This document shows, one piece after another, positions 1 through 15,599 of a stretch of DNA of 26,947 nucleotides (positions within the stretch are counted from its first letter, which is position 1; every line of letters starts with the position of its first letter). The notes under the pieces are model-generated. The model did not search any database and had not been told where the DNA came from. It saw only the letters and a list, made by a program, of their open reading frames with translations. A program made the position numbers and the translations under genes. The DNA lies in IMG/VR virus record IMGVR_UViG_2744054854_000001, positions 1 to 26,947 of that record, one strand, 5' to 3'. The DNA is from a virus (lineage: Duplodnaviria; Heunggongvirae; Uroviricota; Caudoviricetes).

Positions 1-167
1 CAGAGGCTTTTTCCTCTGCTGTAAATGTTCGTCTCATTCAAAAAACCTCCGCAACCCCATGTTTTCACATAACTGTTGCGTTGACCAATTGAATCTACAA
101 CCGCGCTCTTGATGTCAGACTCCCTGAACAATTCTCGTTAATCGGGAAACTCAGAGCGCAGTATCCT

Positions 168-716
168 GTGGTCACACTTTGCCACGTGTTCGGGGTTCAT
201 CGCAGCAGCTACAAATACTGGGGAAAAAGCCTCGAAAAGCCAGATGGCAGGCGAGCTGTGTTACGCAGTCAGGTTCTGGAGCTGCATAACATCAGTCATG
301 GTTCTGCTGGCGCAAGAAGTATCGCGATTATGGCAACCCTGAGAGGCTTTAAAATGGGACGCTGGCTTGCCGGAAAGCTCATGAAAGAACTGGGTCTGGT
401 GAGTTATCAGCAGCCTACCCACCGATATAAACGTGGTGGTCATGAACACATAGTTATCCCGAATCGCCTTGAGCGACAGTTCGCAGTGACTGCACTGGCT
501 CATCGCGACTGGACACGCTTTGTTGAGATAGAGATTGGCTTGTATAGCAATCGATTTGAAGTTATTAGCCCAGGGGCGCTGAATAATTCGATGTCGGTTG
601 AAAAGATGGTTGCAGGTCAGCGTTCACCACGTAATACGATTATCATGGAAGTCTTACGTGATTATGGTTACGTTGATTTCAGGGGATGGGAGTCAGGACA
701 AAGATTATTCCACTAA
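168..716 (+). pseudogene. IS3-family transposase OrfB-like remnant; only the N-terminal ~110 codons look transposase-like, the rest is degenerate
   Basis: Translation [17 protein letters not shown] ... [41 protein letters not shown] ... [20 protein letters not shown] fits the conserved N-terminal region of IS3-family OrfB; no DDE catalytic region follows; no intact upstream orfA frame. Confidence 0.45.
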
Positions 717-857
717 CACAGGCCATGAGTGGCCAATACCCTGAGTTTACTGCAACAGATGATTATTTGAAAACAATACTTTATCGCTCACCATCGTCTT
801 GATATATAAGGTCTGGCCTTTCCATCCATAAGAAAGGCCATTGCTGTAAAAAATAAA

Positions 858-1484
858 TTACCCGCGACTGCAGCCGAAATTACGGTCCCCATCACCGACT
901 ATTTTAGTTCTTACTTTGGTCATGTAATCCACCCTGTTCATCAAATCGCTATAAGTCTGCTCAAAGTTGTCCCTTTTACGATTTAGGAGATATTTTCCAT
1001 TTGATGGGTAATTAACTAGCTTCCCAGAGTCATCTATCGGGATGCCAAGTGCACTGTACCAGGCTGTTGTTATCATTGTACGTAACGTGTTACGCTTTAA
1101 GTCATAATCCCCCAAATGATAATAAGCATCCTGATTGAAACACAATATCAGATGGTAATGCCGTTTTCCATTTTTGGTATATTCTCGGACCCATGCGTAA
1201 CGTAAGGTTGAATGTCGGGTATCAGGCCAGTCTTTTCGTTGAGTTTTAATATGCTTATCGTGTTCAAGCTTTGCTTTTAACGCACTGGTAAAGCGAGATA
1301 TAGCACCAGAGTCAACTCTGGGTTGAAAGAATGGGTTATCCATATTTTCTGTATCAATTGGATCATGCAGATCAACACGAAGAATCATTGAGTTAGGATG
1401 TTCGTTGAGGGAGTCATCAATAACCTGTTGTATTCTATCCCGATATAGGGATACGTGTGATCCGAATTCACTATCGTATGTCAT
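858..1484 (-). CDS. YagK/YfjJ-family protein (inovirus Gp2-like), with an HUH-like motif
   Basis: 208-aa ORF; motif KRHYHLILCF (H-hydrophobic-H then hydrophobics) followed by Tyr-rich segment; position next to yfjI-like and alpA as in CP4-57/CP4-6 islands. Confidence 0.55.
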   Translation of the reverse strand: MTYDSEFGSHVSLYRDRIQQVIDDSLNEHPNSMILRVDLHDPIDTENMDNPFFQPRVDSGAISRFTSALKAKLEHDKHIKTQRKDWPDTRHSTLRYAWVREYTKNGKRHYHLILCFNQDAYYHLGDYDLKRNTLRTMITTAWYSALGIPIDDSGKLVNYPSNGKYLLNRKRDNFEQTYSDLMNRVDYMTKVRTKIVGDGDRNFGCSRG

Positions 1485-1614
1485 ATTGTATCCTATTTAT
1501 TGATATTGGTGTAGGTAATATATACAATATATATTACCTATCATGATAACAAACTATTAGCCGGACTGGGCTCGGTGTTTGTTTTTACTCCTGAATTAAA
1601 ATCATTTGTTATCA

Positions 1615-3030
1615 TCAAAGCACGGGGTTTAAACCAGCTATGGTTATCAATGTGGTTTTGCCTTTCTTTGCCACTAGTATTCTATTTTGAGAGTACAACA
1701 TACCGAGTAATTCATTTGCTTTACTACGCTTTCTAAATTTATTAGGACCATATTGGAGAACAGTATTTTTAGTAATGTAAGGTACAACAAGGCGGTTACA
1801 ATGATTTTTTATCCACCAATAAAGCTCATCCGCCTCCGAGATTGCGGGCGTTAATTCCTGAGGTTTAGAAAATATGTGGATGTACTCATTAACATACCAG
1901 GTAGTTATCTTCACAGCATCTTCGACTGCAGAAAGAGATATATCTCCATCATTGCCATTAAAATAATGCAGCAGAGAGGCCACTCTGGCCATATTTTCTG
2001 CGACCTTAGATGCATAGTCTCTAAAATCTGATAAGGTGCCGAGTAAGCCCATATCTGACTCCACCTTGTTATAAAATTCGATCCAGCGATTTTCTGCTTC
2101 TACAGAAAATCGCAGGCAAAGACGATCATTTTGATTATCTCTGGCAATACTTTCGTTAACTATCTCCATCAGTCGTTGATGGAATACCGGCAAATGTTCG
2201 CTTGAAACAACGGGGCTGGAGATTCTTCTGGAACCTTGCTTTGAATCAGGCTGGCATATGAGACATCGAGCGAAAAAACCGATCCCTTTGGCTGTATCGC
2301 CTTTACGTTGCAGATAACCTTTAAACACATCAGGCTGAACCATAAGTGCTAGCGTCAGTCTGGCATCTCTGATTAATTTCTCTGGCTCACTTTTCCTTTC
2401 CACTGAAAATGTTGCGCCATCCCACATTTTGTTGATGAAAGGCAGTTCGTTCAGCGTGTAACCGTTAAAAATAGTGCCAGCCTCATCAGACATGATACCG
2501 ATAGATCGCCAATAACCACAGAGGTAATCTTTAATAGCCGCAGGAGTGGCATCATTAAATATCTGCTTGAACCTGATCGGTGGTTGCTGGTGCGACGCCA
2601 ACAGCGCTTTAAGTTGTTCATTTGTCGCCAGATGATCTTTGTTACGGCGAATATCTGATTTGAGTTTTGACATCAGTGCTTTTCTTTCAAAATTAAAAAT
2701 TTCTTCATCACTTCGCCAGGTATTAAGAGCATGCGTGTACTTATCAAATAATTCTTCCTCCAGTTGATATAATGGCTTCATCAGCATTTTATCAACCGTA
2801 CTTTTCCGTTCGCCAGATTCTGCAAGTGTCAGCAAGTAAAGTGATACTGGGCTACGTAGATTAGTAAGTCGACAAACATCAATCCGGTTCTGACAGGCAA
2901 GAGATATTACCCCAAGAGCAGAAGCAGCAATCAAACCTTGAGGGGCCTGCGTATGCTGTTCCACTTCATAAATTGCATTTCTGATAATCTGAGGGAACGC
3001 ATTTACAGGAAAAGGATGACCGTTAAACAT
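1615..3030 (-). CDS. YfjI-like DUF3987-family protein (putative island replication/primase-associated protein)
   Basis: 471-aa ORF starting MFNGHPFPVNAFP; size and position directly downstream of alpA match recalled E. coli YfjI. Confidence 0.55.
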   Translation of the reverse strand: MFNGHPFPVNAFPQIIRNAIYEVEQHTQAPQGLIAASALGVISLACQNRIDVCRLTNLRSPVSLYLLTLAESGERKSTVDKMLMKPLYQLEEELFDKYTHALNTWRSDEEIFNFERKALMSKLKSDIRRNKDHLATNEQLKALLASHQQPPIRFKQIFNDATPAAIKDYLCGYWRSIGIMSDEAGTIFNGYTLNELPFINKMWDGATFSVERKSEPEKLIRDARLTLALMVQPDVFKGYLQRKGDTAKGIGFFARCLICQPDSKQGSRRISSPVVSSEHLPVFHQRLMEIVNESIARDNQNDRLCLRFSVEAENRWIEFYNKVESDMGLLGTLSDFRDYASKVAENMARVASLLHYFNGNDGDISLSAVEDAVKITTWYVNEYIHIFSKPQELTPAISEADELYWWIKNHCNRLVVPYITKNTVLQYGPNKFRKRSKANELLGMLYSQNRILVAKKGKTTLITIAGLNPVL

Positions 3031-3156
3031 ATAATACCTCTAATACAATTCACGTTAAAAAATTCTGCGCAAGTTGTTATTCCGCTATTAATAGCAGAAA
3101 TAGCAGGATGAAATAACTCTAATTACAACATTTTGAATGTATGTTAGGTAATTACT

Positions 3157-3369
3157 TCAAATAAGTTTGCTGCGTTGCAATAGCCATTCATCAATCTCTG
3201 ATTCAACCCATCCAACAGATTTCACTCCGAGCATTCGCTTTTTGGGGAAGGAAGCGTCGTAACGCGGTGATTTGGGGTTCAACCAGTCGTAGATTGTTGC
3301 CCTTGCCATACCAGTTTTTTGGATTACCGTAGGTAAGCGGAGTATCCTAACGGTTGATGGATTGTTCAT
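3157..3369 (-). CDS. alpA: AlpA-family transcriptional regulator (prophage regulatory protein)
   Basis: 70-aa ORF MNNPSTVRILRLPTVIQKTGMARATIYDWLNPKSPRYDASFPKKRMLGVKSVGWVESEIDEWL, near-identical in pattern to recalled AlpA of CP4-57; HTH in the N-terminal half. Confidence 0.85.
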   Translation of the reverse strand: MNNPSTVRILRLPTVIQKTGMARATIYDWLNPKSPRYDASFPKKRMLGVKSVGWVESEIDEWLLQRSKLI

Positions 3370-3494
3370 GCTTGATTGCCTCTCGTTAGTTCATTTTGGT
3401 TGTAGAAAGATTAGCGGCAAGCATTAATGCAAAAAATCCGCGTACCAAAAATACATTTTTTACAACACTTAACTAATTGATATTTGGTGTTTTT

Positions 3495-4373
3495 ATGTTG
3501 ACAGCGATTGAGTTTTGCGAAGAAATTAGTCAAAAATCGGTTTGTCTTTCTGGGCAGATGGTCGAATGTGATTGGGACATATACATTGATATGCTCAGCG
3601 AAAGTTATCCTGCGATACTGAAGGAACTAAGCGAAATGCGAGATCAGTTCTGGAATTCTGATAAGGTAGGAACACGTGTGGTTTTGTATAGTGCTCCATC
3701 TCATGAAGAGTATAAATATTATACTGGTGACAGAGTGGGTCAATTAATAGAGGAATATGCTGAATTATATGATCCAGTTCAGGAATGCTGGAAAGAGTTA
3801 AAGTCACGTATTTTCAGGGGAACATTTTCTCATCTTATTCAGGATCCTTTTTTAATTAATGATGTGTTTAAATCACATCTATTTTTTGCCTCGATGTCTT
3901 ATCAATGGGGAAAATCAGTTATGTCAGAGAATGAGTGTGTTGCTATTAAAGCATTCATTAAATCTTCTGAATTATTTGATAGATGTATTGGTATGTCATG
4001 GTTTCATGTTTCTGTATGTGCTCAAAAAAAATTATCCCATGTTAGAGCTAAAGCCGGAAAACAAGGTGGGAGCAGTAAAGCGGAAGTATATCGAGTAATT
4101 CAAGATAAACTTGTTTATTTGATCAATGAATCTGTTCCTGAAGGTGGGTGGAAAAGTAAAGCAGCTGCGGTAAATGCTCTCATTGATCCTTTGTGGGACT
4201 TTATTAAAGAGTCAAATTTTGACATTAATAATGAAAGTAAAAAATATCGTATCGCAACAATGAGCCAAGATGCTTTGGAAGATACCATTATTAAAAACTG
4301 GTCAAGAAATATTGAAAGTATCAAATTGGCTTTAGATAATACAGTTGCTAGAAAAAAGAAAGTCACAGGATAA
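3495..4373 (+). CDS. hypothetical protein, AT-rich cargo gene between integrase and alpA (YfjH-position)
   Basis: Long open frame (track 3477..4373; ATG at 3495 preferred over the TTG); no recognisable motif; markedly AT-rich relative to flanks; divergent from alpA. Confidence 0.5.
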   Translation: MLTAIEFCEEISQKSVCLSGQMVECDWDIYIDMLSESYPAILKELSEMRDQFWNSDKVGTRVVLYSAPSHEEYKYYTGDRVGQLIEEYAELYDPVQECWKELKSRIFRGTFSHLIQDPFLINDVFKSHLFFASMSYQWGKSVMSENECVAIKAFIKSSELFDRCIGMSWFHVSVCAQKKLSHVRAKAGKQGGSSKAEVYRVIQDKLVYLINESVPEGGWKSKAAAVNALIDPLWDFIKESNFDINNESKKYRIATMSQDALEDTIIKNWSRNIESIKLALDNTVARKKKVTG

Positions 4374-4399
4374 AAGCCCGTATTATTAATAGTTGAATT

Positions 4400-4424
4400 A
4401 TCAGCACCCATTATGGGTGCTGAT
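4400..4424. terminator. perfect hairpin between convergent genes (bidirectional terminator candidate)
   Basis: atcagcaccc / gggtgctgat inverted repeat with short loop lying between the 3' ends of the cargo ORF (+) and the integrase (-); flanks AT-rich but no clean U-tract. Confidence 0.4.
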
Positions 4425-4431
4425 AAAGGAT

Positions 4432-5673
4432 TCATCCCACAAGCCGTATTCCCCTAACCCCACTATTAACGATACTGCCGCTATCTGCTGCTTTTACAAA
4501 ATCAGCCCACCATTGCATCATCGGACGACGTTGCTCAAGATAATCACTGCGGTTATAAGCGCGACGCACCTCATTTTTGTCTACATGAGCAAGCGCTGCT
4601 TCAATGACATCAGGTGGAAATCCTTCCTCATTGAGTGCCGTACTGGCGATAGAACGCAAGCCGTGTGAAACAAGTACACCTCCTAAGCCAGCACGCTTGA
4701 GTGCTGCATTCACTGTTTGGCTATTCATTGGTTGGTTGGGCTTGATACGGCTAGGAAAGATAAATTCTCGGCCACCACTGAGAGGCTTCATCATTTCCAG
4801 AATAGCAAGAGCCCCATCAGATAGTGGAACCGTATGGTCCCGGTTCATCTTCATTCGAGCTGCAGGAATTTTCCATTCGCTAGCATTGAAATCGATCTCA
4901 TCCCATCGAGCCTCAGCAGCTTCGGCAGGGCGGGTGATGGTTAGAAGTTGCCACATGAACAGGCATCGTGTGGACAGGCTGATACTTGCCGTGCGCATAG
5001 TCTGCATTAATTGTGGAAGTTGATCCGGGCGGATACTAGGCATGTTTTTCTTCTGCGGTTTCTCGAATGCTTTCCCGATGTTAACGCTGGGAACAGCATC
5101 AATTAGGCCTGTGTTCTGAGCATAAATCATGACTTCGTTAATACGCTGACAAAGGCGGCGAACAGTCTCTAATGCACCTCTGGCCTGAACCGGCTGCACT
5201 GCTTTAACCAGAGTATGAGCCTTAATCTCGGTGACACTGATATCACCGATTGCTGGGAAAACATCTCTCTCAAGCGAGCGCCAGATATCATCGGCATAGT
5301 CCTCTGTTACGCTGGCTTTCTTCACATTCCACCAACGCTCGGCAACTAACAGGAAAGTGTTGGTTTTAGCCTCTTGAGAATTTCTAACCTGCTCTTTCTG
5401 ATGTTCCTGAGGATCAATGTCTTTCGCCAATAAAACTCGAGATTCAGCTCTGAGTTTACGCGCATCAGAAAGGGAGACAGCAGGGTAGGCTCCGAAGCTT
5501 TGCTTGGTTCGCTGTTTTGTCAGAGGTCGATAGTAACGGAATTGCCAGAGCTTACTACCACTGGACTTGATTAACAGAGTAAGCCCGTCACCATCATATA
5601 GCTGGTAATCGGCATCTTTAGGTTTGGCGGCTTTGATTTCCGTATCGGTTAACGGCTTGGTTTTTCTTGCCAT
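4432..5673 (-). CDS. intA: tyrosine integrase, CP4-57 IntA-like
   Basis: ORF track 4432..5709; preferred start ATG at 5673 giving MARKTKPLTDTEIKAAKPKD, the typical N-terminus of P4/CP4-57-type integrases, with GGAG RBS upstream; C-terminal HGLRS...Y catalytic region. Confidence 0.85.
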   Translation of the reverse strand: MARKTKPLTDTEIKAAKPKDADYQLYDGDGLTLLIKSSGSKLWQFRYYRPLTKQRTKQSFGAYPAVSLSDARKLRAESRVLLAKDIDPQEHQKEQVRNSQEAKTNTFLLVAERWWNVKKASVTEDYADDIWRSLERDVFPAIGDISVTEIKAHTLVKAVQPVQARGALETVRRLCQRINEVMIYAQNTGLIDAVPSVNIGKAFEKPQKKNMPSIRPDQLPQLMQTMRTASISLSTRCLFMWQLLTITRPAEAAEARWDEIDFNASEWKIPAARMKMNRDHTVPLSDGALAILEMMKPLSGGREFIFPSRIKPNQPMNSQTVNAALKRAGLGGVLVSHGLRSIASTALNEEGFPPDVIEAALAHVDKNEVRRAYNRSDYLEQRRPMMQWWADFVKAADSGSIVNSGVRGIRLVG

Positions 5674-5796
5674 GGGGAGTCTCCATGCGTTTAGGCCCAA
5701 CGAAAACAATAGAGCTTTTCGTTGGGCCTATCAATGGGCCTAAAAGGTTCGGATTTAATTAGTTCTCTTCGGACTTCGCGGGACAAAGTGAGGGCA

Positions 5797-5830
5797 CAAA
5801 AAAGCCCGCAGGGCTTGCGCCGTGCGGGCT
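5797..5830 (-). terminator. rho-independent terminator downstream of the ssrA 3' end copy
   Basis: On the minus strand: AGCCCGCA ... TGCGGGCT stem followed by TTTTTT. Confidence 0.55.
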
Positions 5831-5876
5831 CTTAGGACTTCATCGGATGACTCTGGTAATCACCGATGGAGAATTT

Positions 5877-5921
5877 TGGTGGAGCTGGCGGGAGTTGAAC
5901 CCGCGTCCGAAATTCCTACAT
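5877..5921 (-). other. attachment-site core: 45-nt copy of the tmRNA (ssrA) 3' end (attR-type remnant, not an intact tmRNA gene)
   Basis: TGGTGGAGCTGGCGGGAGTTGAACCCGCGTCCGAAATTCCTACAT is the reverse complement of the recalled 3' end of E. coli tmRNA (...GAUGUAGGAAUUUCGGACGCGGGUUCAACUCCCGCCAGCUCCACCA); the match stops at 5921 and the upstream sequence is unrelated AT-rich DNA followed by a phage integrase. Confidence 0.8.
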
Positions 5922-6038
5922 ACCATTTTTACACTAACGAAATCATATTTTTTCATTTTAAATCATGATGTTAGTGTTAATCTGTGTTTGCTTGTTTTAC
6001 TTGTTTTTAGTGCTCTGCCGCCAAAGTGCCGCCATTTA

Positions 6039-7064
6039 TTAGCGATGCCAGTTGAGGTTATGAAGTGGATTTTTGGTAACGGCATCTTCCAGATGATCCG
6101 GTGCAAAATGGGCATAAATCATGGTCATTTTAATATCAGCGTGCCCTAAAATATCCCTCAATACTAAAATGTTTCCGCCGTTCATCATAAAGTGGCTGGC
6201 GAAAGTGTGGCGCAGAACGTGGGTACATTGACCTTCAGGTAGTTCAATTCCAGCTCGTTTTACCGCACGCTCAAAAGCCTTTCGGCATGGTGTGAATAAC
6301 TTTCCTCTGTTTTTGGGTAATTCTTCATACAGTTCCTGAGAAATAGGAACAGTTCGGTTTTTCTTTCCTTTTGTTTTGGTATAGGTAATTCGATACTTTG
6401 ATATCTGGTTACCTTGCAGGTTTTCGGCTTCGCTCCATCTTGCCCCGGTTGCCAGACAAATCTTGGCAATCATTAGCAGACTGGGACTTTGAGATTCAGC
6501 ACAAGCGTCAAGCAGGCGTTTGATTTCATCAGCAGCAAGGAACGCCAGTTCACCCTCTGCAATTTTGAAAGTTGGCAGACCGGCGAGAGGGTTGGGTGCA
6601 GACCAATGTCCCAGCTTTTTCAGTGTGCCAAAAACTGAGGATAGGTTACGTTGTTCAAGGTTCACCGTTCTGGGCTTAACTGGTGACATGAGCACACCAT
6701 CTTCGTTTTTGACCTCACCTTTTAATCTGGCTTCCCGGTATTTTGTGAAATCACCTGCTGTCAATTCAGAAGCGATGGGATCGCCAAGCCCATTACAAAT
6801 GATTTTTAACTTAGCCATTAATCGCTTAGGGTCAGCGAGTGTCTGACCGTACAGGGAATACCATTGCTCAATCACTTCTGACAGTTGTCGCCGATCTTCC
6901 TTTTCTCCCAGCCAAGGTTTCTTGTTTACCTCGTCCATGGTGAAATTCTCAAACGCAATGGCTTCGCCTTTCGTCGCAAATTGTTTGCGTACGCGTTTGC
7001 CATCTCGCCCGTTTGGGTAGCATTCACATAACCACTTTCCGTTCGGCTGTTTTCTGATGGTCAT
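6039..7064 (-). CDS. int: prophage tyrosine integrase (P2/186 family)
   Basis: 341-aa ORF, catalytic HxLRHTFAS...Y region near C-terminus; start codon 1 nt from the stop of the upstream repressor gene (cI-int operon); 3' end adjacent to the att core. Confidence 0.9.
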   Translation of the reverse strand: MTIRKQPNGKWLCECYPNGRDGKRVRKQFATKGEAIAFENFTMDEVNKKPWLGEKEDRRQLSEVIEQWYSLYGQTLADPKRLMAKLKIICNGLGDPIASELTAGDFTKYREARLKGEVKNEDGVLMSPVKPRTVNLEQRNLSSVFGTLKKLGHWSAPNPLAGLPTFKIAEGELAFLAADEIKRLLDACAESQSPSLLMIAKICLATGARWSEAENLQGNQISKYRITYTKTKGKKNRTVPISQELYEELPKNRGKLFTPCRKAFERAVKRAGIELPEGQCTHVLRHTFASHFMMNGGNILVLRDILGHADIKMTMIYAHFAPDHLEDAVTKNPLHNLNWHR

Positions 7065-7065
7065 A

Positions 7066-7698
7066 TCAAAGGCTCTTAATGATTTTCAGTGCGCGGCCTA
7101 TTACCTTAATGTCATCCAGTTCGCACTCAAACGATGAATCATCCTGATGCACTACTAATCTGTTTCCCGGGAGTCGTGTCAATTTTACAATGCTTTTTAT
7201 CCCGTCGATGTCCACTAACCACGTACCATTTACTGGTGGTGTTTGGTTGCGATCTATTAAATAAGAATCACCAGAAGTAGTCACCAGCAGCAGGTTGCTT
7301 GAGTCTGAGGGGAGTATGCTGCTATCAATGATTGCTTTTCCAGCATCGACCAATAAACCACCGTTGAGAGTTGCCTTTTCAATTTCAGGAGATACAAGCT
7401 CAGAAAGAGGTTTAACCTTGCTGGGGTTCACGGAATTGATATTTTTTTTAGGGTCAATGTTTGAACCTGGCTCGCCCTGTCCGGTGGTTAGCCATAGTAA
7501 AGAAACTCCTGTTTCCAAGGCGCACTGAATCACCCATTCTGCGGGAAAGCTATCTCTTAAGTATCTGTTTGCCATAGTGCTTTTTGATGCACCTAAGTGA
7601 TCGCAAAGTTGCTGTCTGGACTTGAAATCATAGGCTGCCATTAGTCTATGGATAGCCTCTCTTCCCCCTGTATTCTCGCCAGCTTTTACCTGTATCAT
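7066..7698 (-). CDS. cI: 186-type CI immunity repressor
   Basis: 210-aa ORF; N-terminal HTH and C-terminal segment TWLVDIDGIKSIVKLTRLPGNRLVV...FECELDDIKVIGRA closely resembling recalled 186 CI (LWLVDIEGAISIRELTKLPGRKL...FECGIDDIKTLGRV). Confidence 0.8.
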   Translation of the reverse strand: MIQVKAGENTGGREAIHRLMAAYDFKSRQQLCDHLGASKSTMANRYLRDSFPAEWVIQCALETGVSLLWLTTGQGEPGSNIDPKKNINSVNPSKVKPLSELVSPEIEKATLNGGLLVDAGKAIIDSSILPSDSSNLLLVTTSGDSYLIDRNQTPPVNGTWLVDIDGIKSIVKLTRLPGNRLVVHQDDSSFECELDDIKVIGRALKIIKSL

Positions 7699-7710
7699 TT
7701 CTTAATCCTA

Positions 7711-7762
7711 TTGACGTATCAAATATTGGATCGTAGTATCTCGATGTATCAAATATTGAATC
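7711..7762 (+). promoter_or_regulatory. lytic promoter candidate (TTGACG-N17-TAGTAT) overlapped by two 17-bp direct repeats, probable repressor operators
   Basis: TTGACG at 7711-7716, TAGTAT at 7734-7739; repeats GTATCAAATATTGGATC (7716-7732) and GTATCAAATATTGAATC (7746-7762), 16/17 identical, 30 bp apart, between divergent cI and apl. Confidence 0.45.
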
Positions 7763-7817
7763 TAATAAAACAAGATAAAACTACATAAACCAAACCTTAA
7801 TCGAGAGATACTGCACT

Positions 7818-8066
7818 ATGAGCAACGACATTTCAATTCGTGTACCAAAAGTGATGGCGACACCTGCAGAGTTCGCGGAATGGGAAGGCCGCTCTCGCGG
7901 TTCGGTATATCAAATGATTCATAATGGTAAACTCGCTAAGTTTTTGGAAAGAAAGGAAAAACCGAAAGACAGAGTATGCATACGTTACCTTGAGTACAAA
8001 AAGGAACAAGTCAGGAAAAACATGGGCCAATCCAATTTCAACTTTAATGTCATCGTTGGTGACTAA
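7818..8066 (+). CDS. apl: Apl/Cox-like excisionase and transcriptional regulator
   Basis: 82-aa ORF first gene rightward of cI with HTH-like segment TPAEFAEWEGRSRGSVYQMIHNGKL; position identical to apl of 186 / cox of P2. Confidence 0.6.
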   Translation: MSNDISIRVPKVMATPAEFAEWEGRSRGSVYQMIHNGKLAKFLERKEKPKDRVCIRYLEYKKEQVRKNMGQSNFNFNVIVGD

Positions 8067-8098
8067 GTTCAATTATGAGAACTTTCTAAGGTGGCAGC

Positions 8099-8608
8099 AT
8101 GTTTGATTACAAAATTTCCAAACATCCGCATTTTGATGAAGCCTGTAGAACTTTTGCACTACGTCACAATATGGCGAAGCTGGCAGAACGTGCAGGAATG
8201 AATGTTCAGACACTGAGAAACAAACTCAACCCAGATCAACCGCATCAGCTCACCGCACCAGAAATCTGGCTGCTTACCGATCTGACTGAAGATTCAACGC
8301 TGGTAGATGGTTTTCTGGCTCAGATTCACTGCCTGCCATGCGTACCGATTAATGAGGTGGCAAAAGAGAAACTGCCACATTACGTCATGAGTGCAACCGC
8401 AGAGATCGGGCGTGTTGCTGCAGGTGCGGTATCTGGCGATGTAAAAACCAGTGCAGGTCGTCGTGATGCTATCAGCAGCATTAACTCTGTAACACGACTG
8501 ATGGCGTTGGCTGCTGTTTCATTGCAGGCCCGTTTACAGGCTAACCCTGCGATGGCGAGTGCAGTTGATACCGTGACTGGCCTCGGTGCTTCATTCGGTT
8601 TGCTGTGA
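8099..8608 (+). CDS. cII: CII-like lysogeny establishment regulator (186 type)
   Basis: 169-aa ORF MFDYKISKHPHFDEACRTFALRHNMAKLAERAGMNVQTLRNKLNP... closely matching recalled 186 CII; GGTGG RBS. Confidence 0.8.
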   Translation: MFDYKISKHPHFDEACRTFALRHNMAKLAERAGMNVQTLRNKLNPDQPHQLTAPEIWLLTDLTEDSTLVDGFLAQIHCLPCVPINEVAKEKLPHYVMSATAEIGRVAAGAVSGDVKTSAGRRDAISSINSVTRLMALAAVSLQARLQANPAMASAVDTVTGLGASFGLL

Positions 8609-8615
8609 GGTGCTT

Positions 8616-8816
8616 ATGCTGACGAAAGAACCATCATTTGCATCGCTGCTGGTAAAGCAAAGCCCGGCAATGCACTACGGTCACGGCTGGATCATGGGTG
8701 AGGATGGAAAACGCTGGCATCCGTGCCGTTCACAAGATGAATTGCTGGCAGAACTATCTACGAAGAAACGGGGGAACAAATGGCTATTGAAGGCGCTGCG
8801 GCGACTGTTCCATTAA
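8616..8816 (+). CDS. hypothetical early protein (fil-position)
   Basis: Open frame with GAGG RBS 6 nt upstream of ATG 8616 (ORF track gives an upstream in-frame start at 8586); no recognised motif. Confidence 0.35.
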   Translation: MLTKEPSFASLLVKQSPAMHYGHGWIMGEDGKRWHPCRSQDELLAELSTKKRGNKWLLKALRRLFH

Positions 8817-9121
8817 GCCCCGGTGAACGCCTGAATGGACTTAATCACATTGCGGAGTTAAGGGCGAAAGTATTTGGCCTGAATATTGAGTCAGAGCTTG
8901 AGCGGTTTATTAAAGATATGCGTGATCCACGGGATATCAATAACGAACAAAATAAACGAGCACTGGCTGCCATATTCTTTATGGCAAAAATTCCAGCTGA
9001 ACGTCATAGCATCAGCATTAATGAGCTGACCACTGACGAAAAGCGGGAGTTGATTAAAGCAATGAATCATTTTCGTGCAGTGGTGAGCTTATTTCCCAGA
9101 CGGCTAACCATGCCGAATTAA
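8780..9121 (+). CDS. hypothetical early protein
   Basis: 113-aa ORF with G-rich RBS; overlaps upstream ORF; function not recognisable. Confidence 0.4.
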   Translation: MAIEGAAATVPLSPGERLNGLNHIAELRAKVFGLNIESELERFIKDMRDPRDINNEQNKRALAAIFFMAKIPAERHSISINELTTDEKRELIKAMNHFRAVVSLFPRRLTMPN

Positions 9122-9188
9122 CCAACTAATGAAATTCATGGCGTAAACCCGCCGGGCATCCCTTTATCTAAATTCAGGAGAATTGACA

Positions 9189-9422
9189 ATGCGTAATATT
9201 GAAACCCGCGCCACTAAAACCGGACCGGATGATGCAGGGCTTAATCTTTTACTGACAGAGGCTCGTCTGGAAGAACGCCGGGCAAGGGCTGAAGCAATGG
9301 CTGCCCGCCTTGATAGTCTTGCGTGTCATATCACATCCCGCCAGCTAAACCACGTCGAAGCGGCAGAACTGCTGCGTGTGACCGCTGAAGCAATCCAGAA
9401 CGAAGCGCAGGAGATCCACTAA
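9189..9422 (+). CDS. hypothetical early protein
   Basis: ATG at 9189 preceded by AGGAG; stop overlaps the next start (TAATG). Confidence 0.4.
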   Translation: MRNIETRATKTGPDDAGLNLLLTEARLEERRARAEAMAARLDSLACHITSRQLNHVEAAELLRVTAEAIQNEAQEIH

Positions 9423-11225: not shown

Positions 11226-13576
11226 TGAACTACAGCTATTCCTGGAATGCTGAGAAAAAAGCAATCAATCCTTACGTAGAGACAGAAGAGCAATCTTCAG
11301 TTTCTGCGCTTTCAAACCTGATCGCTCTGTACGCTGCCGATAACGAGCAGGAACACCTGCGCCGCGAGGTACTGAGTGATCAGGTCTGGGAGCGTTATTT
11401 CTTTAATGAATCCCGTGATCCTGTCCAGCGCGAAATGGAGCAGGATAAGCTCATTAGTCGGGCAAAGCTGGCGCATGAGCAGCAGCGTTTTAACCCGGAC
11501 ATGGTCATTCTGGCAGACGTCAGCGCCCAGCCCTCCCATATCAGCAAGCCGCTGATGCAACGTATTGAATACTTCAGCAGCCTGGGCAGGCCAAAGGCTT
11601 ATTCCCGCTATTTACGTGAGACGATTAAGCCATGTCTGGAACGACTGGAGCATGTACGCGACAGCCAGCTATCTGCATCTTTTCGTTTTATGGCAAGCCA
11701 TGTAGGGCTGGACGACCTGCTGATTCTGCCTGAAATGAGTCAGGATCAGGTGAAACGCCTGTCTACCCTTGTCGCTGCGCATATGAGCATGTGCCTTGAT
11801 GCAGCTTGTGGTGATTTGTATGCCACCGATGACGTTAAGCCAGAAGAAATCCGCAAGACATGGGAAAAGGTGGCAGCGGAAACCCTGCGTCTGGATGTCA
11901 TCCCGCCTGCGTTTGAGCAACTCCGCCGGAAAAGAAACCGCCGTAAACCCGTGCCCTATGAACTCATTCCGGGTTCGCTGGCGCGTATGTTGTGCGCCGA
12001 CTGGTGGTACCGGAAATTATGGAAGATGCGTTGCGAATGGCGGGAAGAGCAGTTGCGTGCTGTCTGCCTGGTCAGCAAAAAAGCATCTCCCTATGTCAGC
12101 TATGAAGCCGTGATGCATAAACGTGAGCAGCGCCGTAAGTCGCTGGAGTTTTTTCGTTCTCATGAACTGGTGAACGAAGACGGCGACACGCTGGACATGG
12201 AGGATGTGGTAAACGCCAGCAGCAGCAACCCTGCGCATCGCCGCAATGAGATGATGGCCTGTGTTAAAGGCCTGGAGCTTATCGCGGAAATGCGTGGTGA
12301 CTGCGCCGTTTTCTACACCATTACCTGTCCGTCACGTTTCCATTCCACGCTCAATAACGGCAGACCAAACCCAACCTGGACAAATGCGACGGTAAGACAA
12401 AGCAGCGATTATCTGGTCGGCATGTTTGCTGCATTTCGTAAGGCGATGCACAAAGCCGGGTTGCGCTGGTATGGCGTGCGGGTGGCTGAGCCGCATCATG
12501 ACGGTACGGTTCACTGGCACCTGTTGTGTTTCATGCGCAAAAAAGACCGCCGTGCCATTACTGCATTGTTGCGTAAGTTTGCCATCCGTGAAGACCGCGA
12601 GGAACTGGGTAATAACACTGGGCCGCGCTTTAAGTCTGAGTTGATTAACCCGCGCAAAGGTACGCCAACAAGCTACATCGCGAAATACATCAGTAAGAAC
12701 ATTGACGGGCGTGGTCTGGCTGGCGAGATCAGCAAGGAAACGGGGAAATCCCTTCGTGATAATGCTGAATACGTTAATGCCTGGGCGTCTCTGCATCGTG
12801 TTCAGCAATTCCGCTTCTTTGGCATTCCGGGGCGTCAGGCTTACCGTGAACTGCGATTGCTGGCTGGTCAGGCGGCAAGGCAACAGGGGGACAAAAAAGC
12901 AGGTGCGCCGGTACTGGATAACCCGCGCCTTGATGCCATCCTGGCTGCTGCTGATGCTGGTTGTTTTGCCACCTACATCATGAAGCAGGGCGGCGTACTG
13001 GTTCCCCGCAAATATCACTTGATCAGAACCGCTTATGAAATCAATGAAGAGCCGACCGCCTATGGCGATCACGGTATTCGTATTTATGGCATCTGGTCAC
13101 CCATTGCAGAGGGCAAGATCTGCACTCATGCAGTGAAGTGGAAAATGGTTCGTAAAGCCGTTGACGTTCAGGAGGCGGTAGCCGACCAGGGCGCTTGCGC
13201 CCCTTGGACTCGTGGCAATAACTGTCCCCCTGTTGAAAATCTGAACAAATCAGGGGGTGATTTGCCAGATATTAAAACCATGAATGAGCAGGAACTGCAC
13301 GATTACCTCCACAATATGGGCCAGAAGGAACGCCGGGAGCTGACAGCCAGGTTAAGACTGGTAAAACCGAAGCGGAAAAAAGCATTCAAACAGAGTATTT
13401 CGGAGCAGCAGCGCCTGCAGCTTGAGGCAGAACTGACTGCCAGAGGGTTTGAAGGTAGTGCATCTGAGATTGATTTGCTTCTGCGTGGTGGCAGCATTCC
13501 GTCAGGTGCCGGGCTACGGATTTTTTACCGCAACCATCGACTGCAGGAAGATGACAAATGGCGCCAGTGGTACTGA
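11225..13576 (+). CDS. A: replication initiation endonuclease gpA (rolling-circle initiator)
   Basis: Start ATG 11225 overlapping upstream stop (track start 11174); HUH motif HWHLLCF and tyrosine motif YIAKYISKN; size and position as P2/186 A. Confidence 0.9.
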
Positions 13577-13672
13577 CGGCAAGGCTTTAACAATTCATGC
13601 TCTTAACGACCATCGTAAGAACGTTCTCATTGACGGATAAAAAATATTTTACTTTTGGATATCAGGGGTATA

Positions 13673-13688
13673 CTGTATATATAAACAG
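13673..13688 (+). promoter_or_regulatory. LexA box (SOS operator) of the prophage SOS/antirepressor operon
   Basis: CTGTATATATAAACAG (CTGT-N8-ACAG, flanked TA...TG) overlapping TATACT -10-like hexamer at 13669-13674; TTGACG at 13630-13635 upstream. Confidence 0.75.
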
Positions 13689-13737
13689 TGGATATGCATA
13701 CAGTTAACGCATGTCCGGGGTCGTGATAGGAGGGAAG

Positions 13738-13926
13738 ATGCAGGACTATCTTTTGGAGTCGTTGAAGCTCCAGCGCATTGATTTTTTTATTAAGCTTGTA
13801 GCGGCTAGTGAGTGCAGCGACGAAGAAAAGCGGCTGGCTATCCAGTGGGTGTCTGAATTGACCGACGAGCTGATGGCGAAAATCCGCAGCCATGAATACT
13901 GCCGGTCAATGGACGTAACCAGTTAA
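13738..13926 (+). CDS. small SOS-operon protein, candidate Tum-type antirepressor N-terminal part
   Basis: ATG 13738 with strong AGGAGG RBS (track start 13711); first ORF downstream of LexA box; position equals tum of 186. Confidence 0.45.
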   Translation: MQDYLLESLKLQRIDFFIKLVAASECSDEEKRLAIQWVSELTDELMAKIRSHEYCRSMDVTS

Positions 13927-13937
13927 GGGAAATCTGT

Positions 13938-14171
13938 ATGCGCATTGAAATAATGATCGATAAAGAGCAGAAGATTAGCCAGGCTACACTGGACGCCCTT
14001 GAATCCGAGCTTTACCGTAATTTGCGCCCTCTGTATCCCAAAACAGCAATTCGTATCCGTAAGGGCAGTGCCAACGGCGTTGAGCTGAGCGGGTTAAAAC
14101 TGGATGAAGATAAAAAGCGAGTGATGGAAATAATGCAGCAGGTCTGGGAGGACGACAGCTGGTTACATTAG
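13938..14171 (+). CDS. DinI-family protein
   Basis: 77-aa ORF MRIEIMIDKEQKISQATLDALESELYRNLRPLYP...KRVMEIMQQVWEDDSW collinear with recalled E. coli DinI (MRIEVTI...ALAGELSRRIQ...QRISEILQETWESADDW). Confidence 0.75.
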   Translation: MRIEIMIDKEQKISQATLDALESELYRNLRPLYPKTAIRIRKGSANGVELSGLKLDEDKKRVMEIMQQVWEDDSWLH

Positions 14172-14305
14172 CGAACGTTGCGGACGATAAAACTGGTTTT
14201 TACCGTCCGCAAGGTTGAACAACGAGCCACGCGAGGCGTTAGTGCTGTTGTGCATGTCTATGCCGCATGAAATCGCATGATCGTTTGAGGATCGTTTTTG
14301 CTCAG

Positions 14306-14332
14306 GCCCGCCAGAACTGGCGGGCTTTTGCT
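14306..14332 (+). terminator. rho-independent terminator after the SOS operon
   Basis: GCCCGCCAG-AACT-CTGGCGGGC followed by TTTTG. Confidence 0.6.
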
Positions 14333-14374
14333 TATGTCATGCAGGTGCATGAAAACCACTACACAAAGCGGGCA

Positions 14375-14393
14375 GGCGTGGCGGGGATACGAG
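14375..14393. other. candidate cos site (cohesive end region)
   Basis: GGCGTGGCGGGGATACGAG resembles the 19-nt cohesive ends of P2/186 as recalled (GGCG-GGCGGGGA...); located in the non-coding region just beyond the 3' end of portal gene Q, as in P2. Exact ends not verifiable here. Confidence 0.4.
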
Positions 14394-14463
14394 CGCGCGC
14401 AACGGGGTAAAATGGCCAAAATCCGGCACAGCCTCTGGCCCGCTGGCGGCCTCATTTAGTGGA

Positions 14464-14473
14464 GGGGGGGGGG
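14464..14473. repeat. G10 homopolymer tract in the cos-proximal intergenic region
   Basis: Ten consecutive G read directly at 14464-14473. Confidence 0.9.
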
Positions 14474-14555
14474 AGATTCAGGGCAAAAAGAAACGCCCCG
14501 CAGAATGCTGCTGAGGCGTTGTGAGAGTTGGTCGGGTTTTGATGTTATGAGTATG

Positions 14556-15599
14556 TCAGCCTCGTTTGCCCTTAAGCCCTAAGTCATAAGCTTCAAAACG
14601 GATCACCTCTTCATTCAGCCAGTCATTCAGCTCCTGCAGTCGCTTTTGCAGTGGCATCAGTTCATTGCGGACGAAGACACGGCTCGCTTTTTCCACATCA
14701 CCAAAGCCGCCAGTGTTGTTGGGAATGATGCCCATCATTTGCGGCGGTACGCGGTGAGCCGCCATCATGTCATCGCGGCTGACGTTCTTGATGTTCAGAA
14801 ATTCATCCTTCGCCGCGACTTCCGACAACGGGATAATCTGAATGCCATCTTTTTTGCCGTTAGGCGAGTACATAAACAGGTTGCGGAAGTTGCCCGGCCC
14901 TTTAGCACTTTTCATTGCCTTGCGGATGTTGTTCACATCCTCCTGGTTCTGCGCGGCGTCGGTCATGTACATGATGAAGCCTGCGTGGCTGCCGTTAATG
15001 TAATACTTGCGGCGGAACAGCGTGGCGGATTCGTTGAGCAGAGCTGACGGAATGGCAGAAAGGTAACCCGGCAGACCATAAATCTCCTGGTTGATATCCG
15101 GCTCCATCAGGTGGAAGACGTTACCTTTTGTGAACTGATACGGCTGTGTCGTCAGGCTGTATTGCACAAACCAGTATGTTTCAAGGTCAAGCCCGCGCCG
15201 GGTGTATTTTGCCAGTGCAGGCTCCAGCGAAATAACTTCACCAAAGCGATTCGTGCGCTTCTCCAGATAGGCGTTACCAAAAACCAGATAGTCCTGCACA
15301 AAACGGGTAAATGCCTGCTGGCTGAGAAGGCGATGTGGAATATAGGTACTGCTGATGATGTCACGTTTAACACTGATCGGGGAGCTGTGGTGCACGGCGG
15401 CGCGGAAGGTTCGTGCCAGTCCGTCAAAACTGACGGGCGGCTCATACCAGCGATCCATCTGTACGCATTCCACATAGTCCAGCAGTTCGCGGCGGTCCAG
15501 TACAGGAATGGGATCACCAAAGCTGAAAGCCTCAGCAACGGGTTTTTTAGTTTCTTCTGCAGTTACGGTTTCGCCTGGCGCGATATGTTCTTTCATCAA
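14556..15599 (-). CDS. Q: portal protein gpQ
   Basis: 347-aa ORF, 4-nt overlap with terminase gene P; size and position as P2 Q next to cos. Confidence 0.85.
   Translation of the reverse strand: MMKEHIAPGETVTAEETKKPVAEAFSFGDPIPVLDRRELLDYVECVQMDRWYEPPVSFDGLARTFRAAVHHSSPISVKRDIISSTYIPHRLLSQQAFTRFVQDYLVFGNAYLEKRTNRFGEVISLEPALAKYTRRGLDLETYWFVQYSLTTQPYQFTKGNVFHLMEPDINQEIYGLPGYLSAIPSALLNESATLFRRKYYINGSHAGFIMYMTDAAQNQEDVNNIRKAMKSAKGPGNFRNLFMYSPNGKKDGIQIIPLSEVAAKDEFLNIKNVSRDDMMAAHRVPPQMMGIIPNNTGGFGDVEKASRVFVRNELMPLQKRLQELNDWLNEEVIRFEAYDLGLKGKRG

Follow-up and report, generated by a model that had tools for sequence, protein, structure and literature searches.

What is the AT-rich open reading frame (ORF) that lies between the integrase gene and alpA in the CP4-57-like island of virus record IMGVR_UViG_2744054854_000001, whose positions 1 to 26,947 form the 26,947-nucleotide window analyzed here? 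An earlier note on this DNA had taken it for an orphan cargo gene in an integrase-proximal cargo slot, and for a candidate phage-defence or toxin gene. Comparison with related islands gave a different picture. By alignment, the ORF is a diverged allele of the uncharacterised Escherichia coli K-12 prophage gene yfjH, and its place in those islands marks it as a backbone gene of CP4-57-type islands, a fixed neighbor of alpA, and not as variable cargo. As to its function, we tentatively propose that YfjH acts in the AlpA/Int excision switch as a regulator or sensor, a reading to which we give a probability of roughly 40%.

The window protein aligned by BLASTP with E. coli K-12 YfjH (b2623) without gaps, at 57% identity and 74% positives over 289/292 aa (E = 5e-123). 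K-12 yfjH occupies the same slot between intA and alpA, in the same orientation, in the CP4-57 island at ssrA, and the y-ome lists it as one of its uncharacterised CP4-57 genes (PMC11551758). Among 1.84 billion cluster representatives, a profile search returned 91 family members, mostly of 240-300 aa and 20-30% identical to the window protein, and a repeat of the word-indexed protein search using the remote alignment gave almost no additions. Searching 50,697 phage records by tblastn, we found no YfjH homologue. The K-12 allele was present in 364 E. coli genomes and the window allele class in 36. The label of orphan cargo is thus wrong, since the ORF is a further allele in an already catalogued family, with a homologue in K-12 and at least 91 cluster representatives.

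The ORF can be read from an ATG at 3495 or, six residues longer, from an in-frame TTG (3477-4373, + strand, 298 aa). The ATG is most likely the true start, because it reproduces the length of the RefSeq coding sequence at a 99.9% identical E. coli locus (WP_001618768.1, 'hypothetical protein'), because the entire phrog_19089 profile (1-292) aligned with residues 7-298 of the TTG-start version (E = 3.8e-168), and because the M1 column of the 292-aa version was common to 97% of family members in an alignment of 70. The annotated K-12 yfjH (318 aa, 3645-4601 in locus L003) begins 27 codons upstream of the family start, for which the alignment gave no support; it favors a K-12 YfjH of about 291 aa beginning MISLNDF. 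GC content of the ORF was 34.9% (0.349) and GC3, the value at third codon positions, was 0.263, compared to 0.451 for alpA, 0.484 for intA, 0.412 for yfjI and 0.507 for the full window. Low GC is a trait of the YfjH family and not of the window copy, and no mark of recent arrival, since the yfjH-like gene was lower in GC than alpA and int at 14 of 14 loci. Much of what the earlier note had described therefore stands: an ORF of about 290 aa, without a recognisable motif in Pfam, NCBIfam or PADLOC, divergent from alpA and convergent with the integrase gene across a perfect hairpin. Its description of the gene as strikingly AT-rich relative to both flanks holds for the integrase, where the contrast was strong; on the alpA/yfjI side it was only moderate.

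In order to see how the gene is placed elsewhere, five window proteins were compared by tblastn with loci of Escherichia, Siccibacter, Citrobacter, Pseudescherichia, Mangrovibacter and Photorhabdus. The order yfjJ-yfjI-alpA, yfjH, intA and the orientation of these genes were constant in the six genera, with yfjH broken in Photorhabdus. The slot was held by the yfjH family at 10 of 10 close loci, the Photorhabdus locus with its broken copy being one more, and in E. coli this alpA allele with the spacer, and the ORF, were each found in 36 of 5426 genomes. The neighborhoods of 10 remote family members were then looked up, nine of them with an informative result; the tenth contig (L019) was too short. 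alpA was immediately divergent from the family gene in L012, L014, L015, L017, L018, L024 and L028, and lay within two genes of it in L025/L026 and L027. Integrases of these islands were just 31-34% identical to the window integrase, and the genes downstream of alpA differed. In most cases, then, the family gene and alpA are transcribed away from each other, with a spacer of about 125 bp between them.

Variable content of the close relatives was located after yfjJ, and in L018 it lay between the yfjH-like gene and int (Table 1). The earlier note was right that the integrase-proximal region serves as a cargo position in related islands, with Gabija in L018 and Lamassu in L023 as examples. The cargo-slot reading of this particular ORF failed, as the family was kept at all the close loci and beside alpA in remote islands. 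The note had also suggested checking whether the same slot holds known defence genes in related islands; such genes do occur near int, but in L018 they had been inserted beside the yfjH-like gene and had not taken its place.

The spacer shared with alpA was 124-125 bp long in close loci and 110-147 bp in most of the remote loci. Seven loci, the K-12 type and Photorhabdus among them, were aligned over a stretch containing it, and mean column identity there was 89%; the yfjH coding sequence, whose protein goes down to 57% identity, is far less conserved than the spacer. Short inverted repeats occurred within it, and a consensus scan called no promoter there. Pieces of the spacer recurred in remote loci, namely AGAAAG.TTA, AAAAAATACGG.TGC, and ATTGAT immediately 5′ of the yfjH start. 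Defining an operator from the remote spacer alignment was tried and dropped, because the shared motifs were patchy and too weak.

Against four alleles, the ratio of nonsynonymous to synonymous substitution (dN/dS) of yfjH was 0.20-0.24, at a synonymous divergence (dS) of 0.31-0.38; the corresponding values for intA were 0.02-0.04 at a dS of about 0.42. These ratios mark the ORF as an intact, protein-coding gene under purifying selection, whose product evidently evolves much faster than the integrase. Against K-12, the dS of yfjH was 1.6, which is saturated, while that of intA was 0.22. It follows from this disparity that yfjH alleles have been exchanged within a conserved frame, as in immunity regions.

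The protein seems to be built of two parts. In 70 aligned members, the N-terminal ~175 residues were acidic and variable, with a median isoelectric point (pI) of 5.1, and the C-terminal ~115 residues (~176-292) were basic and conserved, with a median pI of 9.8 and positive in 97% of members; an acidic N-terminal part and a basic C-terminal part were found in 97% and 83% of the 70. Nearly invariant residues of the C-terminal part were G191, G192, L209, W219, A225 and W269, and conservation of the family extended over the full length down to 20% identity. Remote homology search and structure prediction, which the earlier note had proposed as a check, brought out the YfjH family and a confident model without a specific fold match. 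The AlphaFold model, made with the 70 aligned sequences, was all-helical (pLDDT 91.8, pTM 0.79); its central helix is 66 residues long, and residues 61-91 include a small beta element. The model matched no fold in BFVD at E ≤ 0.001, and none specifically in the libraries searched. The window protein reached no Pfam or NCBIfam model above threshold and no PADLOC model even at E ≤ 1, with a library in which GajA/GajB and LmuA/LmuB of the related loci, taken as positive controls, matched strongly. Ten remote family members likewise gave no Pfam match, and a sequence profile search of the PDB gave chance matches only (E ≥ 0.17). Matches to DUF2585/PRK00944 (E 0.02-0.04; 14 bits, with cut-offs at 25 and 241) fell below threshold and were rejected as noise.

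These observations are perhaps best accommodated if the island's AlpA/Int excision-induction switch includes YfjH as a component. Its position is the one where mobile elements usually keep the factor that restrains the lytic or excision activator, as with CI versus Cro, or Stl/Rpr versus Str/Xis. In such a scheme the conserved basic C-terminal part would anchor YfjH to nucleic acid, AlpA or Int, contact with a variable partner, such as a helper-phage or host protein, would fall to the fast-evolving acidic N-terminal part, and YfjH would thereby set the timing of alpA activation and hence of excision and replication. We favor this role because alpA and, usually, int are the only constant partners of the gene over deep divergence, because the shared spacer is far more conserved than the gene itself, because the pattern of allele exchange is typical of immunity and specificity determinants, and because a conserved basic part is joined to a variable acidic one. 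Absence of the family from the phage records searched and the lack of a PADLOC match also support it.

A more specific version can be put forward. Gram-negative phage-inducible chromosomal islands (PICIs) of the AlpA type have AlpA as an activator that is turned on by the helper phage, and whether they have a global repressor has been called unclear (PMC6092414). YfjH could be the missing regulator or sensor of Enterobacterales AlpA-type islands, a structurally new two-part protein whose C-terminal part would restrain the alpA promoter (or AlpA/Int) until a specific protein of phage or host engages the fast-evolving N-terminal part. In this detailed form the proposal is doubtful, and we rate it well below the general one.

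Several observations weigh against a role of YfjH in the switch. No DNA-binding domain, including a helix-turn-helix (HTH), was detected by Pfam, NCBIfam or the PDB profile search, and yfjH is convergent with int, not co-directional with it like Stl/Rpr in the Staphylococcus aureus pathogenicity islands (SaPIs; PMC6092414). In three of the remote contexts the family gene was near alpA, yet not divergent from it. Two other E. coli islands at ssrA, L020 and L022, in which the alpA-DUF3987-Gp2 module is inverted, hold an unrelated gene of 627-639 aa divergent from alpA (1563-3482 and 2444-4327, respectively, both on the - strand) and no member of the yfjH family, and in EcCIMP1 the gene between int and alpA is small and unrelated, so the family is not universally required by AlpA-type islands. 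Decay was also seen, with the gene split into three frames in Photorhabdus khanii (L010 6931-8390) and carrying an ISKpn26 insertion in one genome of E. coli (TUM14664), and deletions affected K-12 yfjH on three occasions during 1,200 days of culture (PMC7858067); judged by these cases, yfjH is dispensable for the host. Lastly, the sole phenotype on record suggests another sort of role: a genome-wide screen identified K-12 yfjH as one of the prophage genes that on overexpression block the retron-Sen2 toxin RcaT (bioRxiv 10.1101/2020.06.22.160242; restated in PMC11951105). The 627-639-aa proteins of L020 and L022 had no Pfam or PADLOC match, and in L020 a gene annotated as an 'ATP-dependent nuclease' follows the large gene.

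The retron screen speaks for a serious rival, in which YfjH would be an accessory factor interacting with host or phage, such as an anti-defence or toxin-neutralising protein, that keeps a fixed place and a promoter coupled to alpA and acts outside the switch. Relative to synonymous change the protein evolves 5-10 times faster than the integrase, and its alleles are exchanged, as in arms-race proteins; no specific counterpart of its fold turned up in the libraries searched; and the unrelated large gene beside alpA in L020 and L022 means that the slot is not bound to one family at depth. However, the text consulted lists yfjH among the RcaT blockers without stating whether it belonged to the 11 put through individual re-tests, blocking on overexpression can be an indirect effect, and the window allele is just 57% identical to the allele screened. 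Linkage to alpA this tight and this deep, in islands with unrelated cargo and distant integrases, is unusual for an accessory gene, and the family is absent from phage genomes. We consider this explanation possible, although somewhat less likely than a role in the switch.

Less survives of the idea, put forward in the earlier note, of a single-gene anti-phage defence or toxin (abortive-infection) function in an integrase-proximal cargo slot. Gabija and Lamassu do sit near the integrase in related ssrA islands, islands of the CP4-57 type carry much defence cargo (AbpAB, a type I restriction-modification system, a CBASS-like set), and the gene is AT-rich and without assigned function. Yet it matched no PADLOC model even at the relaxed cut-off; Pfam, NCBIfam and the fold search indicated no nuclease, NTPase, TIR, HEPN or membrane-disrupting domain; and its neighbors are alpA and int, with no adjoining antitoxin-like partner. 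Among related islands the gene is conserved, not swapped, and stays beside alpA when defence cargo is inserted alongside, and its low GC, being a family trait, is no sign of recent acquisition. A defence or toxin function is therefore improbable.

Very improbable is a decaying, functionless remnant whose AT-rich DNA serves as a spacer or H-NS silencing platform by the alpA promoter, for although the broken copies, the 77-aa yfjH-like remnant that is all that is left in L023 (740-970), the repeated deletion in long-term culture and the binding and repression of the alpA promoter by H-NS in the CP4So island of Shewanella (PMC5148205) point that way, the frame is intact with a dN/dS of 0.2 at dS 0.3-0.4 and beyond, full-length conservation reaches 20% identity with G191, G192, W219, A225 and W269 nearly invariant, the alignment yields a confident structure prediction, and CP4-57 excision in E. 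coli is reportedly not under H-NS control (PMC5148205).

Published observations on K-12 yfjH also concern its expression. Transcription of the gene occurs without induction, with a preference for sigma-S RNA polymerase in vitro (PMC3141248), and acid induces it about two-fold (PMC2270276). In the literature on yfjH, on yfjI/yfjJ, on AlpA and PICI repressors and on the inducer of EcCICFT073, we found no functional study of the family other than the retron screen.

The hairpin between the convergent stop codons of yfjH and intA has two exact half-sites. Its 76-nt context folded at -22.6 kcal/mol (z = -3.8), a value equalled by 0 of 200 shuffles. In seven loci of the window yfjH clade the 29-bp palindrome was invariant and its flanks were variable. 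No T-run was found at it on either strand, and an intrinsic terminator was not called. Since it is invariant in these loci and has no T-run, the palindrome may serve to bind a protein instead of ending transcription.

The element itself is, by gene order and integration site, a CP4-57-like island, as the earlier note had supposed, and it belongs to ssrA; both features agree with those in E. coli HL15, I4 and K-12. A search of 5426 complete E. coli genomes located the region 3100-4520 in 36, on the chromosome every time, and annotated copies had the order yfjJ, yfjI, alpA, yfjH-family ORF, intA, then ssrA and smpB. Window positions 4301-5921 were 100% identical to 13202-14822 of the HL15 locus (L001), where ssrA is annotated at 14778-15140; ARAGORN found no complete transfer-messenger RNA in the window. 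Window IntA shared 96.5% amino acid identity with K-12 IntA, and its RefSeq start corresponds to 5673, giving 413 aa. Between 858 and 5709 the only genes were the yfjJ-like gene, the DUF3987 (yfjI-like) gene, alpA, yfjH and intA (Table 1). No capsid-size or psu-like gene was seen in this interval, in which P4 models were not specifically searched and the left end of the island is cut by an insertion sequence (IS) fragment. Window positions 1-858, adjoining yfjJ, contained an IS3-family transposase fragment and a remnant annotated 'ATP-binding protein', and the cargo side of the island is cut or rearranged at this left end. Directly after the ssrA fragment lies a P2-like prophage, with an integrase gene at 6039-7064 (-) and a CI-like gene at 7066-7698 (-), which was 94% identical to Klebsiella phage Kp4849-2 over 94% of 5930-26947. 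As read from this arrangement, the window is a tandem insertion of island and P2-like prophage in ssrA.

Table 1. Positions of the island features in the window and of defence cargo in related islands.
Feature	Sequence	Position	Strand	Details
yfjJ-like gene	window	858..1484	-	Pfam YagK_YfjJ_C, E = 8.1e-64; RefSeq name 'inovirus Gp2 family protein'; beyond yfjI
yfjI-like gene, putative replication helicase/primase-type	window	1615..3030	-	Pfam DUF3987, E = 1.1e-98; phrog_2373 'DNA helicase', E = 1e-95; downstream of alpA
alpA	window	3157..3369	-	70 aa; AlpA-family regulator/excisionase; Pfam Phage_AlpA, E = 7.6e-24
Divergent intergenic (promoter) region alpA/yfjH	window	3370..3494	.	125 bp
yfjH-family coding sequence	window	3495..4373	+	292 aa from ATG, 879 nt; from ORF list, K-12 YfjH homology and phrog_19089
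Perfect palindrome/hairpin	window	4398..4426	.	29 bp; 13-bp stem, 3-nt loop; between the yfjH and intA stop codons
intA, CP4-57-type tyrosine integrase	window	4432..5709	-	Pfam Phage_integrase, Arm-DNA-bind_3, Phage_int_M
ssrA 3′ fragment, attachment-site copy, island end	window	5877..5921	-	45 nt; by identity to L001
Type I restriction-modification system	L001 (E. coli HL15)			after yfjJ
CBASS-like four-gene set	L002 (E. coli I4)	5061-9404		nucleotidyltransferase, ThiF, MPN, SAVED; after yfjJ
abpAB (AbpAB)	K-12			after yfjJ
Gabija	L018	8985-12742		GajA E = 5e-272, GajB E = 7.5e-244; between yfjH-like gene and int, alpA pair intact
Lamassu	L023	2895-6513		LmuA, LmuB; adjoins ssrA integrase; 77-aa yfjH-like remnant only

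The comparative result worth keeping is that a family without a Pfam entry and without a specific fold match in the searched libraries is tied to alpA across very distant islands, evolves fast within a conserved frame, and is located where a component of the switch is expected. Since K-12 already carries a copy, YfjH is a cheap and testable candidate for how AlpA-type islands and Gram-negative PICIs stay silent and sense their helper phage. Additionally, the defence cargo of ssrA islands was mapped to two places, after yfjJ and between yfjH and int.

Unlike a type II toxin-antitoxin module, with its two small co-transcribed genes, yfjH stands alone, with no same-strand ORF of at least 50 aa in its flanks. 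The defence hotspot cargo of P4-like satellites and ssrA islands resembles yfjH in being integrase-proximal in an integrative element and AT-rich, and related islands carry such systems close by; it differs in that yfjH has a fixed place in related and distant islands, matches no PADLOC model and has cargo inserted beside it. K-12 YfjH shares with the window copy full-length homology, slot, orientation, low GC and the conserved spacer to alpA, but it represents a separate allele class with saturated synonymous sites despite the near-identical flanking intA, and K-12-type loci are without the 29-bp palindrome and have a 243-bp gap between yfjH and intA. Compared to the Stl/Rpr master repressors of Gram-positive SaPIs and PICIs, YfjH has no detected HTH or other DNA-binding domain and no sequence or fold similarity to solved structures, and the likeness is one of position, size and divergence only: like their genes, yfjH lies between the integrase gene and the excision/activator gene and is divergent from the latter (PMC6092414), the proteins are of similar size, about 250-300 aa, and both are highly divergent between otherwise similar islands.

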